Below are positions 26,030 to 57,049 of a stretch of DNA of 64,000 nucleotides, one piece after another. Numbering within the stretch: position 1 is the first letter of the stretch; the number at the start of each line of letters is the position of its first letter. The notes below the pieces were generated by a model that saw only the letters and a list, made by a program, of their open reading frames with translations, was not told where the DNA came from and made no database searches. Source of the stretch: Phyllobates terribilis (lineage: Eukaryota); contig NW_027362769.1 in the NCBI RefSeq assembly GCF_046119375.1, positions 52,762,001-52,826,000 on the forward strand. The letters run 5' to 3'. Position numbers and translations under genes: made by a program.

Positions 26030-28504
26030 TTACAGAAAAGACTTGAAGCTAACAGACTCGTTCAAACCAGAGGGCATAACCGTGTCCAATGTGATAATCC
26101 AGCGTGTCTCTTTTTGGAGCAATTTTTGTTTAGTATTGCCTCCCCTAATGCCCATATAGACTCTATCGATGCCACGAGCTGAAAGGCCCTTAGGGTTACA
26201 GCCGTGGGCATCGAAAAAGTGCCTGGGAATAGATTTAAGTTGTTGAGGGTCTGAGCAAGAGGCGGCATTTTTTATATCTCTAATATGTTCCTGAATGCGG
26301 ATTTTGAGGGGTCTTGTGGTCATTCCTATGTAGACTAGATCACACGGACATCGAATATGATAAACGACCGCTTCCGTTTCACATGTGATGTGATGTAAGA
26401 TTTTAAAGTTTTTATTCCTACCGGAGTCTGAAAATTCACCCGTTTTGGTGATATATTTACAGATTGAGCATCTGCCACAGGCGGAACAGCCCCATGGTGG
26501 GCCCTTACTGCCAGGGAAAAATTGTTTTTTTGGAGGGACATAGTGACTTCTGGAGACGATATCTCCGAGGGTCTTAGCTCTACGCCATGTTATAAGTGGT
26601 TGTTTAGTAAGCTGACCGCGTAGATCACGGTCCGTAAGTAAAATAGGCCAATGTTTAGAAAAAATCTTTTTAATATTGATCCAATTAGTATTAAATGTAG
26701 TGATAAATCTAGGTAATATATCAGTGTTTGTTTTCTTTTTAGCATTAGACAGTAGGCTTTGTCTACTAATGGCTTTAGCTCGTAAGAAGCCACGTTTAAT
26801 GTCCTGCTTTGGATAGCCCCTATCCTGAAATCTACGAGATAGATCATATGCTTGATGGCGAAAATTATTGTCGTTAGAACAGATACGTCGTGCCCGTAAA
26901 AATTGCCCTACAGGGATAGAGCTTTTTAGTTTTGGCGGGTGTGAGGAAGAATAGTGTAATAAAGCGTTAGTGGAGGTCTCCTTCCTGAAAATGTCAGTCT
27001 CAATTCTATTATCTTCTGATTTGGTGATAAGTAAGTCTAAAAAGTCAACTGATGTCTGACTATATTTCCAGGTTAAATGAATATTACGAGTATTTTTATT
27101 GAGACTGTGAAGGAATGTCTCCAATTGCGAGATGGAGCCCTGCCAGATAAACAATATATCATCAATATATCTTGACCAGGACATGACGGCTTCATGGCCC
27201 CGTGTGTTAAGGACCGTATCCCTCTCCCACAGCCCCAGGAACAAGTTAGCATATGAGGGCGCACAAGACGCCCCCATTGCTGTGCCCTGGAGCTGCAGGA
27301 AGGGGCGGTCCTTAAACACAAAATAGTTGTGTCTAAGAATAAAATCCAAAAGAGAGAGAATGAATAGTATAAGATCTGGATCAAGATTTGTCATGGTCAG
27401 AAAGAATTGTACAGCCGTCATGCCCTGGTCGTGACGTATCGAGGTATATAAGGACTCCACATCACAAGTAACAAGCCACATATCTTCCTCAAGAGTAATC
27501 CCGTCTAGTCGTTTTAGAACATCAGTGGTATCCCTCACGAAAGATGGGAGAGTCTCCACGCATCTTTGGAGATAAAAATCCACGAATTTACATATAGGTT
27601 CACAAAGACCCCCAATACCCGAGACAATGGGTCTGCCTGGTGGGTGGAGGGGGTCTTTGTGAACCTTGGGCAAAAGATAAAAGGTCGGCACCACTGGATG
27701 TTCCAAAAGTAGTGCCTCTTTCATTTTTGGAAGGATAACCAAGTTATCCACGGCATCATCCAGTAGATGTGAAAGTTCTCTCGCAAAGGTTGTGGTAGGA
27801 ATGTTATCCAGCCTTCTATAATTTTGAACATTATTAAGTTGTCTGAAGGCTTCACGTTCGTATGCTAGGACAGACCATAATACAACGTTCCCGCCCTTGT
27901 CCGCCCTTTTGATGACAATGTCCTTTAGGTTTTTGAGTTCACGGATAGCCTGTCTTTGTGGTCTAGACAGGTTATCCTCAAGGATACCCTCCCTAAGTTG
28001 GAGAAGGTCTTGTTTAACTAACTTGACAAAAATGTCAACCTGAGAGCAGGTAGACAGGGGCGGGAACGCATGTGAACGTCTATACAGATGTGTGGGGAAT
28101 TTCGTAGTATCATCAGCGCTCTGTTCAGCCGCCAAAGACTCGAGATTCTGTAAGGCCCGAATCTCGGCATCCGAAGAGAGCGCTTCTGATCTATGTGGTG
28201 ATGGACTAAAGTACTTCTTAAAGATAAGCTTACGAGCGAATAATTCAAGATCCTTAATGGTGGTAAAGTAATCATAGCCCTCCACCGGTGAAAAAGAGAG
28301 GCCCCTAGACAGCACCTCAATCTGTGGCTTAGATAGAGTGTGTTTAGATAAATTAATTACCTTTAAGTTCTCTTTCCTCTCTTTTGTCTGAAATTGTATG
28401 GATGATTTTTCTTTTGTATATATGGAGTCCTGAGCTGCTGAAGAGTGTTTATGGGCAATGCCTCGCCGGGCAGAGCCCGTTTGTCTAAAGAATGTCCTCC
28501 ACAT
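26030..28504 (-). CDS. Penelope-like RT + GIY-YIG endonuclease polyprotein (824 aa, uninterrupted)
   Basis: VINLS, VIKRADKGGNVV, GRPIVS, CDVESLYTSI, GTAMGA, RYIDD, CSACGRCSIC linker, VVYHIRCPCDLVYIGMTTRPLKIRIQEH. Confidence 0.95.
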   Translation of the reverse strand: MWRTFFRQTGSARRGIAHKHSSAAQDSIYTKEKSSIQFQTKERKENLKVINLSKHTLSKPQIEVLSRGLSFSPVEGYDYFTTIKDLELFARKLIFKKYFSPSPHRSEALSSDAEIRALQNLESLAAEQSADDTTKFPTHLYRRSHAFPPLSTCSQVDIFVKLVKQDLLQLREGILEDNLSRPQRQAIRELKNLKDIVIKRADKGGNVVLWSVLAYEREAFRQLNNVQNYRRLDNIPTTTFARELSHLLDDAVDNLVILPKMKEALLLEHPVVPTFYLLPKVHKDPLHPPGRPIVSGIGGLCEPICKFVDFYLQRCVETLPSFVRDTTDVLKRLDGITLEEDMWLVTCDVESLYTSIRHDQGMTAVQFFLTMTNLDPDLILFILSLLDFILRHNYFVFKDRPFLQLQGTAMGASCAPSYANLFLGLWERDTVLNTRGHEAVMSWSRYIDDILFIWQGSISQLETFLHSLNKNTRNIHLTWKYSQTSVDFLDLLITKSEDNRIETDIFRKETSTNALLHYSSSHPPKLKSSIPVGQFLRARRICSNDNNFRHQAYDLSRRFQDRGYPKQDIKRGFLRAKAISRQSLLSNAKKKTNTDILPRFITTFNTNWINIKKIFSKHWPILLTDRDLRGQLTKQPLITWRRAKTLGDIVSRSHYVPPKKQFFPGSKGPPWGCSACGRCSICKYITKTGEFSDSGRNKNFKILHHITCETEAVVYHIRCPCDLVYIGMTTRPLKIRIQEHIRDIKNAASCSDPQQLKSIPRHFFDAHGCNPKGLSARGIDRVYMGIRGGNTKQKLLQKETRWIITLDTVMPSGLNESVSFKSFL

Positions 28505-29103
28505 TCTTCCTCAGAGGTAGATGAAATGCTTGAGGCCGACTGAGACCTAGTGCGTAATTTATTGTGTCTATTTTTATGATGCCAGTGGTAAATATTCTTG
28601 GATTGATAATCCTCAAGATCCCTCAGATATTTTTTTGTTTTGAAATTCTGGATCTCAGATTCCCATTTGGAAAGTTCTTCCTCCAAAGATAGATCAAAGT
28701 TTTTATACTCATCTATTGGGAGTAGAGATTGAATTTTCTACCACAGGGAATCAATCTCTTTTTCGATAGGTTCTAGCGCCTTTTTATCGGCACCAATAAG
28801 AATTTCTAGTAGAGTGCGTGAACATTTAGTAAGTGTCTCTTCCCACTTACCAGTGAGCACTGAATCTTCAGTGTCCAAAGTGGGAAAGAGTTGGATGCGG
28901 AGCCCTCTGGGTATAATATCTTTACATAGATAAATTTCTAAGGCGGCTTTGTTCCACCATAGTTTAATTCTTTTTTTGAGTAGATCTTTAATTTGCTGCT
29001 TCAAGTCTTTAATGTCACTTGTATCCTTAGAGGTAGTTGACTTCTCACCAAATACCGTCCCGAGTTGAATAACTCGGGCTTTATCTCTCTTTCTAAAGTC
29101 CAT
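28363..29103 (-). pseudogene. PLE upstream ORF (about 246 codons, one internal TAG at 28738-28740)
   Basis: ORF-track pieces 28738-29196 and 28363-28686 are in one frame. ATG at 29103 (MDFRKR). YL..DIIPRGLRIQLFP..KWEETL resembles the PLE N-terminal motif. Different frame from RT, overlapping it by 142 nt. Confidence 0.75.
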
Positions 29104-48455: not shown

Positions 48456-50311
48456 TTAAAGGGGTTCATCCCTCATTATCAGCACAAGAGCACCATCATC
48501 TTCAGTACAAGGGCACCACTACCTTGCCTACTGACTTCCTGCATGATCAACAGTTCGGACCGGCAATATTGTCTCACCGATGGCCTAAATTATGCAAGCC
48601 TAATGCTGCTATATGAGGCAGCTTTGACCTTGCAACATCGGAACAGTGTGCTAGCACTAAACCTGACCAGGATCAGGATAACAGCAAACCTGGCTAGCTT
48701 CAGTGCAGTGCTTACAAGCTCAATGCAAATGAGCTTGTCCACACTATACATGTCTGTTCACTCCTGCCAGTTGGTAGCAGTGGCTGGTAACCTGTGCAAT
48801 GAGCTGTAGACCAACAGCAAAATAGTAATTATCCAAAGAACTGTGCACAATTTTAATGAAAAGTGAATGGGTAAGTTGGTTGTTTTTACAAGCACATTCC
48901 TATTAGATCCATCTTTTAAGGCAGCGGTAGGGAACCTTAGGTTTGCGGACTGTTTAGGGCCCTTGACTTTTTATCTGACCACCGGGCAGATTCCCGGTGA
49001 CTGTAGTGTTTGGGCCAGCAGCTGTATTGTGATGGCCGCTGGCCCATTAATTTCTTCTTGCTCTGTGAGCATGCGCACACAATGTTCACTACTGAATGCT
49101 GAGGCGCATGCAATGAAAAATGACGTCCTGACACCAGTGCCAGCGTCAGGACGCACTTTGTAGAGTTAGCGCACAATTTGTACGGCCCACGAAGGACTGT
49201 ATAAATATTCCAATGGCTCTTGGCAGAAAAAAAAAAAGATTCCCCACCCCTGTCGTGGCAGGTAAAAATACAGTAGCCCGTCTGTGTCTGCCTCTGACTA
49301 ACTAGTACCTCCCTCCTCCTCTCTCGCTACACATATCTTACCTCAGTGATCTGAAAATCTGTCTTCTCTGAGGGTGAAAGGAGAAAGAAGTAAATTTCTC
49401 TTCGCTGGATCCAGTATCTTAAAGGGAACCTGTCATATTGAAAATATCTGATCTGCAGGGAGGATGTAATGGAACAATAAGAGCTGATCAGATCGATGTA
49501 CACCGTATTCCAAATTATTATGCAAATTGGATTTAAGTGTCATAAAGATGTATTTTTGGGTTTTTCAAATAAATTCATGGATGGTATTGTGTCAGGGCTC
49601 TTTGGATCACTAAAATCTCAAACACCTGTGATAATTAATTTGCCAAGTTCCACGTTATTAAGCAGGCCACAGGTTTCAAGCAATATGGGAAAGAAAAGGG
49701 ATCTCTCTGCTGCCGAAAAGCATCAAATAGTGCAAATTCACCGGAGCAGCTGGTGAAATACCATTATAAAGCAGAAAACAGGTATTTGAAGTTCTTGGTG
49801 CCTCTGGGAGTCCTGCAAACCTCAAGGTGTAGGATCCTCCAGAAGCTTGTAGTTGTGCATAAACCTACTATTTGGCCGCCTCCAAACAGTACTCACAAAC
49901 AGAAATGGTTGCAGTTGGCCCAGACATACATGAAGACTAATTTTTAAACAGTCTTGTTTACTGATGAGTGACGTGCAACCCTGGATGGTCCAAACGGATG
50001 GAGTAATAGATGTTTGGTGGATGGCCACCATGTCCCAACCAGGCTGGAACATCAGCAAGGAGGTGGTGGAGACATGGTTTGGGTCGGAATCATGGAGAGA
50101 GATCTGGTAGGCCCCTTTAGTGTCCCTGAAGGTGTGAAAATGACCCCGGCAAAGTACATAGTGTTTCGGAATTACCACTTTCTTCCATGGTACAAAAAGA
50201 ATAACTGAGCCTGTCGTAACAAAATCATTTTAATGCACCATCTCAAGCTGCAAAGCATACCTTTTAGTCATTGGCTGCTATGGGCATGAAAGGAGAGAAA
50301 CCCATGGTGTA

Positions 50312-50557
50312 CATAAACGTGAGGGAAAAGGGGAAAACAAGAGAGTCAGCTCACCAGATCCATGTTGTAAAGAAGCTGTGTAAATCTTCTCCCAGGACCA
50401 GGTGCAGTTAGCAGACAGCAGAAAACAAAAAATCTCCAGCGAAGAATCAAGTAAAACTTCAGTATTTATTAGATCATCATAAAATAGTAGCAGTTCCTCC
50501 ACTGGTTTCCAACCAACGCGTTTCGGCTACGCCGTACTCATGGTTTTGTTTTCCTGC
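50312..50557 (-). mobile_element. 246-bp hammerhead-bearing retro-insertion (PLE-type mini-element)
   Basis: 14-bp TSD AAAC[C/T]CATGGTGTA at 50298-50311 and 50558-50571. Hammerhead near its 5' end and AATAAA internally. No coding potential evident. Confidence 0.8.
50511..50545 (-). ncRNA. Minimal type I hammerhead ribozyme, A3-U8 core variant
   Basis: Minus strand reads AACC-ATGAGTA-C-GGC(GTA)GCC-GAAAC-GC-GTT-GGTT. Confidence 0.75.
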
Positions 50558-50927
50558 AAACTCATGGTGTAGCCACCAGTGCTGTGGAGTCAGTCATGGA
50601 GTCTGTGTCTATTTTGGTTGAGTCGGTATAAAATGGACCAACTCAGACTCCTAAAATATATAATAAATTGGGTATAGAAGTTCAGTGTAGTATGCGCGGA
50701 ATATTTTTTCATAAGAATTTGGGAAAGTTATGAAATGTCCTATAAATGTCTGTTCTGTTCCTGATCTAAGGCTTTTAGTTGAGATGAATCTGTGCTGCAC
50801 TTTATGTACAGTGGGGGAAATAAGTATTTGATCCCTTGCTGTTTTTGTAAGTTTGCCCACTGACAAAGACATGAACAGTCTAGAATTTTAAGGGTAGGTT
50901 AATTTTAACACTGAGAGATAGAATATA

Positions 50928-52577
50928 CAGTTATATGAAAAAGTTTGGGCACCCCTATGAATCTTAAGCTTAATGTTTTATAAAAATTTGTGTTTTTGCA
51001 ACAGCTATTTCAGTTTGATATATGTAATAACTGTTGGACACAGTAATGTTTCTGCCTTGAAATGAGGTTTATTGTGCTAACAGAAAATGTGCAATCTGCA
51101 TTCAAACAAAATTTGACAGGTGCATAAGTACGGGCACCCTTATCATTTTCTTGTTTTAAATACTCCTACCTACTTTTTACTGACTTACTAAAGCACTTTT
51201 TTTGGTTTTGTAACCTCATTGAGCTTTGAACTTCATAGCCAGGTGTATGCAATCATGAGAAAAGCTACTTAAAGTGGCCACTTGCAAGTTGTTCTCCTGT
51301 TTGAATCTCCTCTGAAGAGTGGCATCATGGGCTCCTCAAAACAACTGTCAAATGATCTGAAAACAAAGATTATTCAACATAGTTGTTCAGGCGAAGGATA
51401 CAAAAAGCTGTCTCAGAGATTTAACCTGTCAGTTTCCACTGTGAGGAACATAGTAAGGAAATGGAAGAACACAGGGACAGTTCTTGTTAAGGCCAGAAGT
51501 GGCAGGCCAAGAAAAACATCTGAAAGGCAGAGAAGAAGAATGGTGAGATCAGTCAAGGACAATCCTCAGACCACCTCCAGAGAGCTGCAGCATCAACTTG
51601 CTGCAGATGGTGTCACTGTGCATCGGTCAACTATACAACGCACTTTGCACAAGGAGAAGCTGTATGGGAGAGTGATGCGAAAGAAGCCGTTTCTGCAAGC
51701 ACGCCACAAACAGAATCGGCTGAGGTATGCAAAAGCACATTTGGAGAAGCCAATTTCTTTTTGGAAGAAGGTCCTGTGGACTGATGAAACCAAGATTGAG
51801 TTGTTTGGTCATACAAAAAGGCGTTATGCATGGCGGCAAAAAAACACAGCATTCCAAGAAAAACACTTGCTACCCACAGTAAAATTTGGTGGAGGTTCCA
51901 TCATGCTTTGGGGCTGTGTGGCCAATGGCGGAACCGGGAATCTTGTTAAAGTTAAGGGACGCATGGATTCCACTCAGTATCAGCAGATTCTTGACAATAA
52001 TGTTCAAGAATCAGTGACAAAGTTGAAGTTACGCAGGGGATGGATCTTTCAGCAAGACAATGATCCAAAACACCGCTCCAAATCTACTCAGGCATTCATG
52101 CAGAGGAACAATTACAATGTTCTGGAATGGCCATCCCAGTCCCCAGACCTGAATATCATTGAACATCTGTGGGATCATTTGAAGAGGGCTGTCCATGCTC
52201 GGCGACCATCAAACTTAACTGAACTGGAATTGTTTTGTAAAGAGGAATGGTCAAAAATACCTTCATCCAGGATCCAGGAAATCATTCAAAGCTACAGGAA
52301 GCGACTAGAGGCTGTTCGTTTTGCAAAAGGAGGATCTACTAAATATTAATGTCACTTTTCTGGTGAGGTGCCCATACTTATGCACCTGTCAAATTTTGTT
52401 TGAATGCAGATTGCACATTTTCTGTTAGTACAATAAATCTCATTTCAAGGCAGAAACATTACTGTGTCCAACAGTTATTACATATATCAAACTGAAATAG
52501 CTGTTGCAAAAACACCAATTATTATAAAACATTAAGCTTAAGATTAATAGGGGTGCCCAAACTTTTTCATATAACTG
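50928..52577 (+). mobile_element. Apparently intact autonomous Tc1 (IR/DR-type) transposon, 1650 bp
   Basis: TA TSDs; TIRs of about 211 bp with 6 mismatches counted by eye; intact ORF. Confidence 0.95.
51327..52349 (+). CDS. Tc1 transposase, 340 aa, DD34E
   Basis: ATG at 51327 (MGSSKQLS). Paired-like [22 protein letters not shown], exactly 34 residues to SPDLNIIE. No stops. Confidence 0.95.
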   Translation: MGSSKQLSNDLKTKIIQHSCSGEGYKKLSQRFNLSVSTVRNIVRKWKNTGTVLVKARSGRPRKTSERQRRRMVRSVKDNPQTTSRELQHQLAADGVTVHRSTIQRTLHKEKLYGRVMRKKPFLQARHKQNRLRYAKAHLEKPISFWKKVLWTDETKIELFGHTKRRYAWRQKNTAFQEKHLLPTVKFGGGSIMLWGCVANGGTGNLVKVKGRMDSTQYQQILDNNVQESVTKLKLRRGWIFQQDNDPKHRSKSTQAFMQRNNYNVLEWPSQSPDLNIIEHLWDHLKRAVHARRPSNLTELELFCKEEWSKIPSSRIQEIIQSYRKRLEAVRFAKGGSTKY

Positions 52578-52676
52578 TATATAAAAAAATCAAGAAAATC
52601 ACATTGTATAAATTAGATTTTTTTTTTGCATTTTGCAGTGAAATAAGTATTTGATCCCTCTAGCAAACAACACTTA

Positions 52677-54383
52677 CCGTATTTTTCGGACTATAAGACG
52701 CACTTTTTTCCTCCAAAATTTTGGAGGAAAGTGGGGTGTGCGTCTTATAGTCCGAATACTATATTATTGTATGGCCACATGGTGGTGGGTGTGGGGGAGC
52801 GGCAGCGGGGGGGATCAGCGGCGCACAGGAGGCAGCAGCCGCTTGCTGCAGCCTAGCTGTGCCCGCTACTAAAGAAAATGAATATTCCCTGCTCCCCACG
52901 CCCATAGGCGTGCAGAGCAATGAATATTCATTTCTCTCAATAGCCGGCACACTGGAGCCGCAGCGCGGCTCCTGCTGCGCTCTGCGGTCAGTGTGCCCGC
53001 TATTAAAGCTCATGAATATTCGCTACAACCCACTCCCATGGGTTGTAGTGAATATTCATGATCTTTAATAGCAGGGACACTGACCACAGAGTGGCAGCAG
53101 GAGCCGCGCTGCGGTACAGTGTGCCGGCTATTGAACAGACTGAATGGTCACTGCTCCCCACGCACAGAGTCCCGGCGTGGGGAGCAGTGACTATTCCAGC
53201 ACAGCGTCTCACACTGTGTGAGGACGCATAGCAGGGACGCCATGCGCCGCTCACACAGTGAGAGTGTCAGCAGCAGAGCGGGATGGCGTTGGAGGAGAGA
53301 GGAGGTGAGTATGATTGTACTTTTTTTTTGTAGGCAGCGTGATGGGGACTCAGAGGGTGTCATAAATACCAGGATGGGGGCTCAGAGGGTGCCAGACATA
53401 CCAGGATGGGGCCTCAGAGGGTGCCATACATACCAGGATGGGGGCTCAGAAGGTGCCATACATACCAGGATGGGGGCACAGAGGGTGCCATACATACCAG
53501 GATGGGGGCTCAAAGGGTGCCATACATACCAGGATGGGGGCTCAGAGGGTGCCATACATACCAGGATGGGGCTCAAAGGGTGCCATGCATACCAGGATGG
53601 GGGCTCAGAGGAGTGCCATGAATACCAGGATGGGGGCTCAGAAGGTGCCATGCATACCAGGATGGGGGCTCAGAGGGTGCCATGCATACCAGGATGGGGG
53701 CTCAGAGGGTGCCATGCATACCTGGATGGTGGCTCAGAAGGTGCCATGCATACCTGGATGGGGGCTCAGAAGGTGCCATGCATACCAGGATTGGGACTCA
53801 GAACCAGGATGGGGGCTCAGAAGGTGCCATGCATACCAGGATGGGGGCTCAGAGAGTGCCATGCATACCCGGATGGGGGCTCTGAAGGTGCCATGCGTAC
53901 CAGGATGGGGGCTCAGAGGGTGCCATGCATACGTGGATGGGGGCTCAGAAGGTGCCATACATACCTGGATGGGGGCTCAGAACCAGGATGGGGGCTCAAG
54001 GGGTGCCATGCATACCAGGAGGGGGCTCAATGGGTGCCATGCATACCAGGATGGGGGCTCAAGGGGTGCCATGCATACCAGGATGGGGGATAAAAGGGGT
54101 GCCATGCATACTAGGATGGGGGATAAAGGGGTGCCATGCATACCAGGATGGGGGATAAAGGGGTGCCATGCATACCAGGATGGGATGGGGGCCACTTATA
54201 CCAGGATGGAGGATATTAACAGAATTGGGGGACATTACCTAAATACCAGTGTCCGCAGACCCCCTTCCCCCATAACAGGGCATCATGACCACATTTTTTG
54301 CTTACATTTTTTTTCCTATTTTCCTCCTTTAAAACCTAGGTGCGTCTTATGGTCCAGTGCGTCTTATAGTCCGAAAAATACGG
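52677..54383. mobile_element. pogo/Tigger-type non-autonomous element
   Basis: TA|CCGTATTTTTCGGACTATAAGACGCAC...GCGTCTTATAGTCCGAAAAATACGG|TA. Confidence 0.88.
53340..54200. repeat. About 30-bp minisatellite
   Basis: CCATGCATACCAGGATGGGGGCTCAGAAGGTG units. Confidence 0.95.
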
Positions 54384-54753
54384 TAATACATGGTGGCAAA
54401 ACCCTTGTTGGCAAGAACAGCAGTCAGACGTTTTTTGTAGTTGATTATGAGGGTTGCGCACATGTCAGGAGGAATTTTGGTCCACTCCTCTTTGCAGATT
54501 ATCTCTAAATCATTCAGATTTTGAGGCTGTCGCTTGGCAACTCGAAGCTTCAACTCCCTCCATAAGTTTTCTATGGGATTAAGGTCTGGAGACTGGCTAT
54601 GCCACTCCATGACCTTACTGTGCTTCTTTTTGAGCCACTCCTTTGTTGTCTTGGCTGTATGTTTTGGGTCATTGTCTTGCTGGAAGACCCAGCCACGACC
54701 GATCTTCAATACCTAGACATAGATACATACACACACACACACACACACATATA

Positions 54754-56310
54754 CAGACAGACCAAAAGTTTGGACACACCTTCTCATTTAAAGATTTTTC
54801 TGTATTTTCATGACTATGAAAATTGTACATTCACACTGAAGGCATCAAAACTATGAATTAACACATGTGGAATTATATATTTAACAAAAAAGTGTGAAAC
54901 AACTGAAAATATGTCTTATATTCTAGGTTCTTCAAAGTAGCCACCTTTTGCTTTGATGACTGCTTTGCACACTCTTGGCATTCTCTTTATGAGCTTCAAG
55001 AGGTAGTCACCGGAAATGGTCTTCCAACAATCTTGAAGGAGTTCCCAGAGATGCTTAGCACTTGTTGGCCCTTTTGCCTTCACTCGGCGGTCCAGCTCAC
55101 CCCAAACCATCTCGATTGGGTTCAGGTCTGGTGACTGTGGAGGCCAGGTCATCTGGCGTAGCACCCCATCACTCTCCCTCTTGGTCAAATAGCCCTTACA
55201 CAGCCTGGAGGTGTGTTTGGGGTCATTGTCCTGTTGAAAAATAAATGATGGTCCAACTAAACGCAAACCGGATGGAATAGCATGCTGCTGCAAGATGCTG
55301 TGGTAGCCATGCTGGTTAAGTATGCCTTCAATTTTGAACAATACCCCAACAGTGTCACTATCAAAGCACCCCCACACTATCACACCACCTCCTCCATGCT
55401 TCACGGTGGGAACCAGGCATGTAGAGTCCATCCGTTCACCTTTTCTGCGTCGCACAAAGACACGGTGGTTGGAACCAAAGATCTCAAATTTGAACTCATC
55501 AGACCAAAGCACAGATTTCCACTGGTCTAATGTCCATTCCTTGTGTTCTTTAGCCCAAACAAGTCTCTTCTGCTTGTTGCCTGTCCTTAGCAGTGGTTTC
55601 CTAGCAGCTATTTTACCATGAAGGCCTGCTGCACAAAGTCTCCTCTTAATTGTTGTTGTAGAGATGTGTCTGCTGCTAGAACTCTGTGTGGCATTGACCT
55701 GGTCTCTAATCTGAGCTGCTGTTAACCTGCGATTTCTGAGGCTGGTGACTCGGATAAACTTATCATCAGAAGCAGAGATGACTCATGGTCTTCCTTTCCT
55801 GGGGCGGTCCTCATGTGAGCCAGTTTCTTTGTAGCGCTTGATGGTTTTTGCAACTGCACTTGGGGACACTTTCAAAGTTTTCCCAATTTTTCGCACTGAC
55901 TGACTTTCATTTCTTAAAGTAATGATGGCCACTCGTTTTTCTTTGCTTAGCTGCTTTTTTTCTTGCCATAATACAAATTCTAACAGTCTATTCAGTAGGA
56001 CTATCAGCTGTGTATCCACCAGACTTCTGCACAACACAACTGATGGTCCCAAACCCATTTATAAGGCAAGAAATCCCACTTATTAAACCTGACAGGGCAC
56101 ACCTGTGAAGTGAAAACCATTTCCGGTGACTACCTCTTGAAGCTCATCAAGAGAATGCCAAGAGTGTGCAAAGCAGTCATCAAAGCAAAAGGTGGCTCCT
56201 TTGAAGAACCTAGCATATAAGACATATTTTCAGTTGTTTCACACTTTTTTGTTAAGTATATAATTCCACATGTGTTAATTCATAGTTTTGATGCCTTCAG
56301 TGTGAATGTA
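54754..56310 (-). mobile_element. Tc1-like transposon, same family as 1879-3508, defective
   Basis: C-terminal ORF 54916-55512 has an intact SPDLNPIEM. +1 A in the run after the ATG, a TGA after GRP, and about 70 bp of the outer TIR missing. Confidence 0.92.
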
Positions 56311-57049
56311 GCCCAGATTGACCTCATTATAATCCGCCTATGGATCAAATACTTATTTCCCCCACTGTACATGCTCTGTGAAGCAGTGCTGTGGAGTCTG
56401 AATCATGGAGTCGAGAGTCAGGGAAATTGAGGAGTCAGAGACTTGGCTTATTGACTCCACAGCCCTGGTAGCCACCATCCTCCCCTGACTTCAACCCTAT
56501 TGAGAACCTTTGGAGTATCCTCAAGCAAAAGATCAATGAGGGTGGGAGTCAGTTCACAGCAGCTCTGGGAAGCTATATGGACATCCTGCAAATACATTCA
56601 AGCAGAACCTATCCAAAAACTCACAAAATGGATACAAGAATTGAGACCGTGAGCTCAAAGAAAGGGCCCTATGTTAACATGTAACTTGGTCTGTTATGAT
56701 GTTTTTGATTGGAAAAGTTTTTGATTTCAGTAAATGTGACCTCTTAATGCTGCAAATTCAACAAATTATAATTTTCAGTTTTTTACAACCCATAAAATAT
56801 TAGGAAACTCTGTTGTGCATAATAATTTGGAACAATGCATTTTGAGGTTTTTTTAGTTTTGAAAAAAATACTGTTATCATTCAGAGATTTGTTCAATAAA
56901 ACTTGATTTATACTCTTAACGTTTGATTATTAGAACATTATACTGACTCATTTGCATCGACTATTTAAGAAAATCAGAGAAAAATAGCATTTGCATAATA
57001 ATTTGGAATGCGGTGTACATTTTTTGAGGAAAAGTTTCAGCAAACCTTG

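Follow-up and report, generated by a model that had tools for sequence, protein, structure and literature searches.

A 246-nt insert lies on the minus strand at positions 50312-50557 of the window, the whole 64-kb stretch of DNA analysed here, inside a decayed Tc1 transposase. It contains an AATAAA, which may be a poly(A) signal, and no coding frame, in agreement with the preliminary description of this DNA. A 14-nt target-site duplication (TSD) flanks the insert, with 13 of 14 positions identical (93%). We fetched 11 Tc1 relatives, and in all seven that show the site motif the target is present once, as an empty site. The duplication is therefore real, and the "clean" TSD claimed earlier has the length and origin proposed for it, with one mismatch. 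The output of our automatic TSD finder had a high background, with null scores reaching 14, and clear cases alone were used. The features of the locus are listed below; F1 is the family of the insert, F2 a sister family, and E1 and E2 are end points of its arms.

49508-50310, plus strand: host, a decayed Tc1-type transposon, which resumes at 56468 past a second nested insertion
50298-50311: TSD copy on the 3' side of the element, with the one mismatch
50558-50571: TSD copy on the 5' side of the element, 14 nt, single in Tc1 relatives
50312-50545, minus strand: direct arm, read as pLTR and tail of a PLE from hammerhead stem I to E2; 234 nt, 86-94% identical to other F1 direct arms with gaps ignored
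50544-50557, plus strand: inverted arm, 12 nt plus 2 nt in common with the direct arm; reverse complement of E1
50418-50429, minus strand: E1, the end point of inverted arms and of copies that have no tail
50312-50417, minus strand: tail, running between E1 and E2 and containing a conserved GTGAG at 50354-50350
50465-50470, minus strand: AATAAA, kept in F1 and at the same position in F2
50511-50545, minus strand: putative type I minimal hammerhead, from stem I to the predicted cut region
50545-50542 with 50514-50511, minus strand: stem I, 4 bp
50541, minus strand: A3 of the hammerhead core
50536, minus strand: U8 of the hammerhead core
50534, minus strand: position 9a, a private C, an extra base between A9 and stem II
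50533-50525, minus strand: stem II, 3 bp
50524-50521, minus strand: GAAA of the core, followed by the palindrome

The second nested insertion (window 50577-56467) is 5.9 kb long, has inverted ends and an 8-bp duplication, and splits the same Tc1 19 nt from the end of the PLE. It appears to be hAT-like.

Read on the minus strand, the hammerhead core AUGAGUA (50541-50535) is followed by GAAA, a palindromic CGCG and a GUU triplet, which places the predicted cut between 50515 and 50514. Everything expected of a minimal type I core is present (U4, G5, A6, A9, G12, A13, A14, the A15.1-U16.1 pair, H17 and a Watson-Crick 3-8 pair), and the motif is the sole match to a relaxed hammerhead pattern within the window. 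The compact A3-U8 hammerhead first proposed, with its 3-bp stem II, palindrome and GUU, thus holds as a parse, with one unmentioned base at 9a. Rfam gave no hammerhead match here, neither at the gathering score nor at E<=10, and the folding energy of the motif is not above that of shuffles (z of -0.2 to -1.5 and +0.8), as expected because the core would need a dimer. Position 9a is C in the window copy, whereas 32 of the 33 motif contexts from the family, a set not fully de-duplicated, have A there. In the predicted ensemble, this C pairs with G12 (P=0.98, versus 0.0 in another F1 copy, L015). We considered the private C as an inactivating change and rejected the idea, since Fig. S3 of PMC4209133, in its accessible form, includes natural PLE hammerheads with C at 9a; the base remains a caution.

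Family and kinship of the insert

A search of the 10.6-Gb genome with the insert, in which 40 of 55 candidates were scored, yielded 48 matches at 70-100% identity. Two pattern scans of the whole genome, with 19 and 12 matches, added no loci to those already seen, and F1 is therefore small. It comprises 24 loci at about 78% or more identity, two of them with common flanks. At one of these, L009, a pLTR 86% identical to the window copy is colinear with a 3' UTR and a stop-to-stop frame of 192 aa. A protein atlas assigns the frame to GIY-YIG with a score of 0.97, and 44% of the top cluster carries Pfam GIY-YIG. The frame shares 52% identity with the final part of the RT-bearing F2 ORF; Pfam and PDB sequence searches did not recognise it. 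L009 thus has a minimal-hammerhead pLTR directly downstream of a GIY-YIG frame, as in EN+ PLEs. L005, L016 and L010 have an upstream UTR in common, so that, with L009, upstream element sequence is found in 4 of the 24 loci.

The RT of F1 itself presumably existed. RT-bearing copies (L088, L090 and L096) have pLTRs 73-77% identical, none turned up with a pLTR 80% or more identical, and a DNA search with the L009 endonuclease region (11 of 11 candidates scored) gave no close second copy. The F2 ORF matches RVT_1 at E=1.4e-5, under the curated cut-off. Between RT and endonuclease, five of the six relatives listed carry a CX2-5CxxC linker motif; L009 has F for the first C. This linker, common to Neptune and Nematis in the accessible text of PMC8557442, points to one of those two clades. 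Neptune and Poseidon are described as the vertebrate PLE clades in the open part of bioRxiv 10.64898/2026.07.22.740005, and the window element is likely of the Neptune type.

Two more decayed PLE ORFs lie elsewhere in the window (26159-29076 and 14-1102, both on the minus strand). They are 28-35% identical to the F2 protein, and the relaxed pattern found no hammerhead at either.

The architecture of the insert recurs among its relatives. The 12 nt ahead of stem I repeat the family's inner end point, E1, in reverse complement; the window copy has its own direct copy of E1 at about 50429-50418. That the insert begins 12 nt before stem I was correctly seen in the preliminary description; these nucleotides are an inverted piece of E1 and not upstream element sequence. 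An exact 13-mer of the inverted arm occurs in 9 of 11 F1 loci tested, and 0.12 chance matches to the arm would be expected in the window at one mismatch. Inverted arms are present in 11 of the 24 F1 loci, the window copy included, with the outer end at or within about 30 nt of E1 as judged by eye. The long ones of L006, L007, L015 and L092 open with the same letters as the inverted arm in the window. Sister families with RT and GIY-YIG frames also make the inverted arm and the E1/E2 structure. The full-length F2 locus L172 reads, in order, inverted arm ending at E1, pLTR-tail, ORF and pLTR-tail. The family F3 supplies a structural twin, L276, with a 12-nt TSD, a 13-nt inverted E1 arm and a direct arm running from +6 (numbering below) to E2. 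E1 would then be a second priming site.

The tail from E1 to E2 is homologous to a stretch that, in F2, leads into the ORF of full-length elements. It therefore resembles the EN+ PLE tail, which is the start of a downstream unit, and is longer than described. The GTGAG at 50354-50350 is a possible splice donor. The tails of F1, F2 and F3 all keep GTGAG followed by a pyrimidine run, with E2 40-50 nt past GTGAG, and the tail may end within a 5' UTR intron. When three contig-level runs were compared with the F2 element, the matches were scattered and showed no splice joint, a result with no bearing either way. Two of these runs (X2 and X3), which we guess to be RNA, hold an F2-like tail piece (L172:7075-7214) within 3-6-kb contigs at a depth of about 180-200, which may reflect a PLE tail carried by an abundant transcript of the host.

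We conclude, with a probability of roughly 85%, that the insert is a solo pLTR with its tail, the terminal repeat of an old EN+ PLE present in few copies, and that it was probably written by the element's enzyme priming at two fixed inner positions on a transcript that had not been cut. Taken alone, it is a dead PLE end of an ordinary kind. Its earlier billing as a candidate for an undescribed element does not stand, since a PLE terminal repeat is a known kind of element; what is new, as far as our searches reach, is the A3-U8 core variant. The alternative offered alongside it, an extremely 5'-truncated PLE, was right about the PLE end and wrong about random truncation: the direct arm starts at stem I, like most.

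Start points of copies and the predicted cut site

We mapped 5' ends by gapped alignment, with anchors downstream of the ribozyme, in the two younger coding families F2 and F3. Positions are numbered with A3 at +7; on this scale, a cut product would start at +40 in F2 and at +34 in F3. The mapped arms leave aside 32 further F2-scan matches (of 132), most of the duplicated cluster on C9 and 444 of 484 F3 candidates. The C9 cluster (G000:C9:215.1-218.7 Mb) is a large segmental repeat array, with about 35 F2 matches that have common flanks and a spacing near 80-170 kb.

In F1, the direct arm of the window copy starts at +3, and arms of the lineage pile up at about 0 to 6. The cut-site class of F1 is thin, with about six arms at +32 to +42, of which two begin 2 nt before the cut. 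F2 provided 89 de-duplicated arms, 42 long and 47 short. Of the short arms, 17 start at -2 to 9, 4 at 10 to 38 (0 at 34 to 38), 24 at 39 to 53 and 2 further upstream. Because this pool mixes queries, some of which favour long arms, tests were restricted to short insertions. F3 provided 45 arms, 21 long and 24 short; among the latter, 13 start at -13 to 12, 0 at 13 to 31, 8 at 32 to 39, 2 later and 1 at -48.

The 5' ends are not random: they form two piles, one at the start of stem I and one at the predicted cut site. With windows that were chosen post hoc, after inspection of the data, 12 of 31 short F2 insertions start at 39 to 43 versus 0 at 29 to 38 (p=5e-5), and in F2 and F3 together 20 insertions begin between 2 nt before and 5 nt after the cut, versus 1 in the 10 nt upstream (p=5.5e-5). 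The interval +32 to +38 holds 6 of 19 starts in F3 and 0 of 31 in F2 (p=0.002, windows again post hoc), and the second pile therefore shifts with the length of the ribozyme. In F2 this pile has a sharp upstream boundary at the cut: three arms start exactly at +40, and by eye four of five calls at +39 are microhomology with the TSD or the partner arm. Three F3 arms begin 1-2 nt before the cut, which microhomology explains in part, not entirely. F2 loci with two arms are never mixed: in 16 of 16, the two arms belong to one class (7 and 9; permutation p=3e-5).

The second pile is likely a trace of hammerhead cleavage that took place in vivo ahead of reverse transcription. The competing account, for this pile alone, is that RT stalls at the folded ribozyme, or that junctions favour short palindromes, and no cleavage takes place. 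We consider it a minority possibility, though a serious one. Many ends fall within the 3' strand of stem I (+42 to +45 in F2, +36 to +39 in F3), each of the two F2 piles has CATG palindromes close by, and a few ends are 1-2 nt upstream of the cut. Neither stalling nor palindromes sit easily with the sharp F2 edge at +40, with a stem I of just 4-6 pairs, with the same pile among insertions joined to host DNA, or with the complete concordance of arm classes at two-arm loci.

The first pile bears on the insert itself. The window copy fits a complete copy of the first 234 nt of an RNA, run to the RNA 5' end. The start of its direct arm at stem I is thus in keeping with the TSS-to-end copy put forward at the outset, and the 12 nt cited for it belong to the inverted arm. 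At L067:1485-1535, a 16-nt unit (stem I and the start of the core) occurs three times at the 5' junction, which suggests repeated slippage at the RNA 5' end.

A sequence of events can be proposed that would produce both piles and both arms. Transcription would begin at stem I, with the hammerhead at the very start of the transcript; the Penelope pLTR holds an internal promoter, according to the accessible text of PMC2377424. The endonuclease would nick both target strands 14 nt apart. One nick would prime reverse transcription at E2, near the 5' end of a full-length RNA, and run-off at stem I would leave a solo pLTR. The other would prime at E1 on the opposite strand and stop after about 13 nt, giving the inverted arm, and the two cDNAs would be joined via 2 nt of microhomology. 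Two RT start sites, with both strands extended in vitro, are described for an anole PLE in the open sections of PMC11167929, and an inverted truncated copy and a tail are named as PLE hallmarks in those of PMC8557442. The A3-U8 hammerhead would cut as a dimer via its ACGCGU palindrome. Part of the RNAs were likely cut in vivo, because the second insertion class starts at the cut site; the window copy would belong to the uncut class, with an aborted second arm. On balance, we lean toward this account for the PLE group as a whole: an A3-U8 hammerhead at the start of the transcript cuts in vivo, cut and uncut RNAs are both copied, and priming of one RNA, or of a co-cleaved dimer, at E1 and E2 gives head-to-head insertions.

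Short-RNA and retrozyme readings of the insert

The preliminary description preferred a retrozyme or a distinct short family for the insert. We find no tandem arrays, a GIY-YIG frame upstream in L009, no clade of short copies, and coding families that give the same products.

In the version with a short non-autonomous family, a solo pLTR would yield a 234-nt RNA from its inner promoter, to be copied in trans by PLE proteins as SINEs are. Much about F1 looks this way at first sight. Upstream element sequence is missing from 19 of 23 independent insertions, most starts fall in a 55-nt stretch around the ribozyme, coding sequence survives at 1 of 24 loci and RT at none, and the Penelope pLTR promoter (PMC2377424, accessible text) would supply the transcript. 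The pLTR tree speaks against a separate lineage. It was built from 31 of 39 aligned arms (eight short or partial ones omitted; 257 columns; half of the inner branches open), and it rejects one clade of 18 short F1 arms (AU p=0.00016). The short arms have no clade of their own and sit on star-like branches, and the window copy groups with the UTR-bearing L016 (92/82). Moreover, the coding families F2 and F3 give the same short products, in F2 at a similar rate: long copies make up 6 of 25 independent F2 loci (from a tail-query sample) versus 4 of 23 in F1, and therefore no separate short lineage is needed for F1. Shared 5' ends are indeed found across the family, as had been predicted; they do not speak for a retrozyme, since they also occur in the sister families that code for protein. 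A solo copy may now and then have been mobilised again. As an explanation of the family, we judge trans-mobilised short RNA improbable.

Far less probable still is a non-LTR retrozyme of the newt satellite 2 kind, with tandem hammerhead repeats that give circular RNA monomers: the 246-nt size, the long TSD and the hammerhead suit it, and animal retrozymes are reported as pLTR-derived (bioRxiv 10.64898/2026.07.22.740005, open part), but a full head-to-tail repeat occurs in 0 of 24 F1 loci (L008 has one partial 83-nt same-strand repeat), the ribozyme is of the minimal PLE type (4-bp stem I, 3-bp stem II, 9a) and not a canonical one with loop 1-loop 2 contacts, the ends are fixed at E1/E2 and not circularly permuted, and an inverted arm is present. 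The tandem multimers once suggested are therefore lacking in F1, and no tandem repeat was found in the window at 48-53 kb. The 14-nt TSD exceeds the 4 bp taken as a retrozyme criterion; PLEs share this trait, so it is not diagnostic. A retrozyme-like form does exist in this genome, unrelated to the insert: L023 has two canonical-looking C3-G8 hammerheads 331 nt apart (424 and 755, plus strand) in a repeated unit, for which TRF gave no report.

The A3-U8 core and known systems

On the features tested, the window element belongs to EN+ PLEs. With the Neptune clade, as described in the accessible text of PMC8557442, it shares the pLTR with a hammerhead, the C-terminal GIY-YIG, the CX2-5CxxC linker, the inverted truncated copy, the tail and heavy 5' truncation. 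The tail differs in length, at about 105-120 nt in the window family versus 30-40 nt there. The A3-U8 core also sets the element apart, and its clade is assigned from the linker motif and not from an RT tree.

The ribozyme closely resembles the minimal PLE hammerheads of Cervera and de la Pena (2014; PMC4209133, accessible text), found in pLTRs and carrying an extra base after A9. Both are type I with a short stem I, an extra base between 9 and 10.1, a G10.1-C11.1 pair and a palindromic 15.2-16.2, and both occur mostly as solo copies, with opposite-strand pairs 100-700 bp apart. The difference lies in the 3-8 pair, which is C3-G8 or U3-A8 there and A3-U8 here. No AUGA core appears among the alignment rows of Fig. 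S3 of that paper in their extracted form, and U3-A8 is the sole 3-8 variant named in the accessible portion of section 8 of Perreault 2011 (PMC3088659).

Among 60 motif contexts of the fetched loci, the 3-8 pair is A-U in 57, C-G in 2 and an A-C mismatch in 1; these contexts are not fully de-duplicated, come from loci gathered with an A3-U8 query, and were found with a pattern that fixed the other core bases. The A3-U8 contexts span at least five sequence families. Across families stem I changes with compensation (AACC/GGUU, UCCC/GGGA, UUCC/GGAA, AAUC/GAUU), and N7 and N17 vary. Searches of the openly readable literature found no report of A3-U8 cores or of 5' ends at the cut site; outside that scope lie subscription papers, Repbase, Dfam and the work of Lunse et al. 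2017 on PLE hammerhead dimers (RNA Biol), which may already list A3-U8. As far as our searches reach, an A3-U8 core in several families and its cut-site footprint are new. Such cores escape searches that demand CUGANGA, and PLE hammerheads are thus possibly undercounted.

The anole Poseidon (Frangieh 2024, PMC11167929, accessible text) also has two inner RT start sites, with both target strands cut and extended, and a protein-assisted hammerhead near the pLTR-ORF junction. Its ribozyme overlaps the start codon, whereas that of F2 lies about 300 nt before the ORF. In the same text, the cut site coincides with neither the start nor the end of any RNA-seq read; here, genomic 5' ends map to it. 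Non-LTR retrozymes and newt satellite 2 (PMC7229834, accessible text; the 2026 preprint) resemble the insert in being short, non-coding and related to pLTRs, with a hammerhead and a long TSD. The insert family differs in having no array, a minimal ribozyme, fixed PLE ends, an inverted arm and interleaved coding copies.

What PLE hammerheads do is described as unclear in the accessible text of PMC8557442, and their cleavage in vitro is weak according to that of PMC4209133. If our account is true, the pile at the cut site in two families is in vivo evidence from DNA alone, repeatable wherever young PLEs occur, and the genome holds a base-resolution record of PLE ribozyme activity. The concordance of the two arms would also constrain the origin of the inverted structures typical of PLEs. 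The significance sits in the relatives of the insert, less in the insert alone. Near-identical F3 would be a live test system and offers the best bench material. This family (L089:5043-5345, plus strand; L265-L304) is very young, with at least 41 matches 100% identical over 103 nt among 484 candidates. It carries an A3-U8 hammerhead together with RT and GIY-YIG frames, the longest stop-to-stop frame seen being 485 aa.
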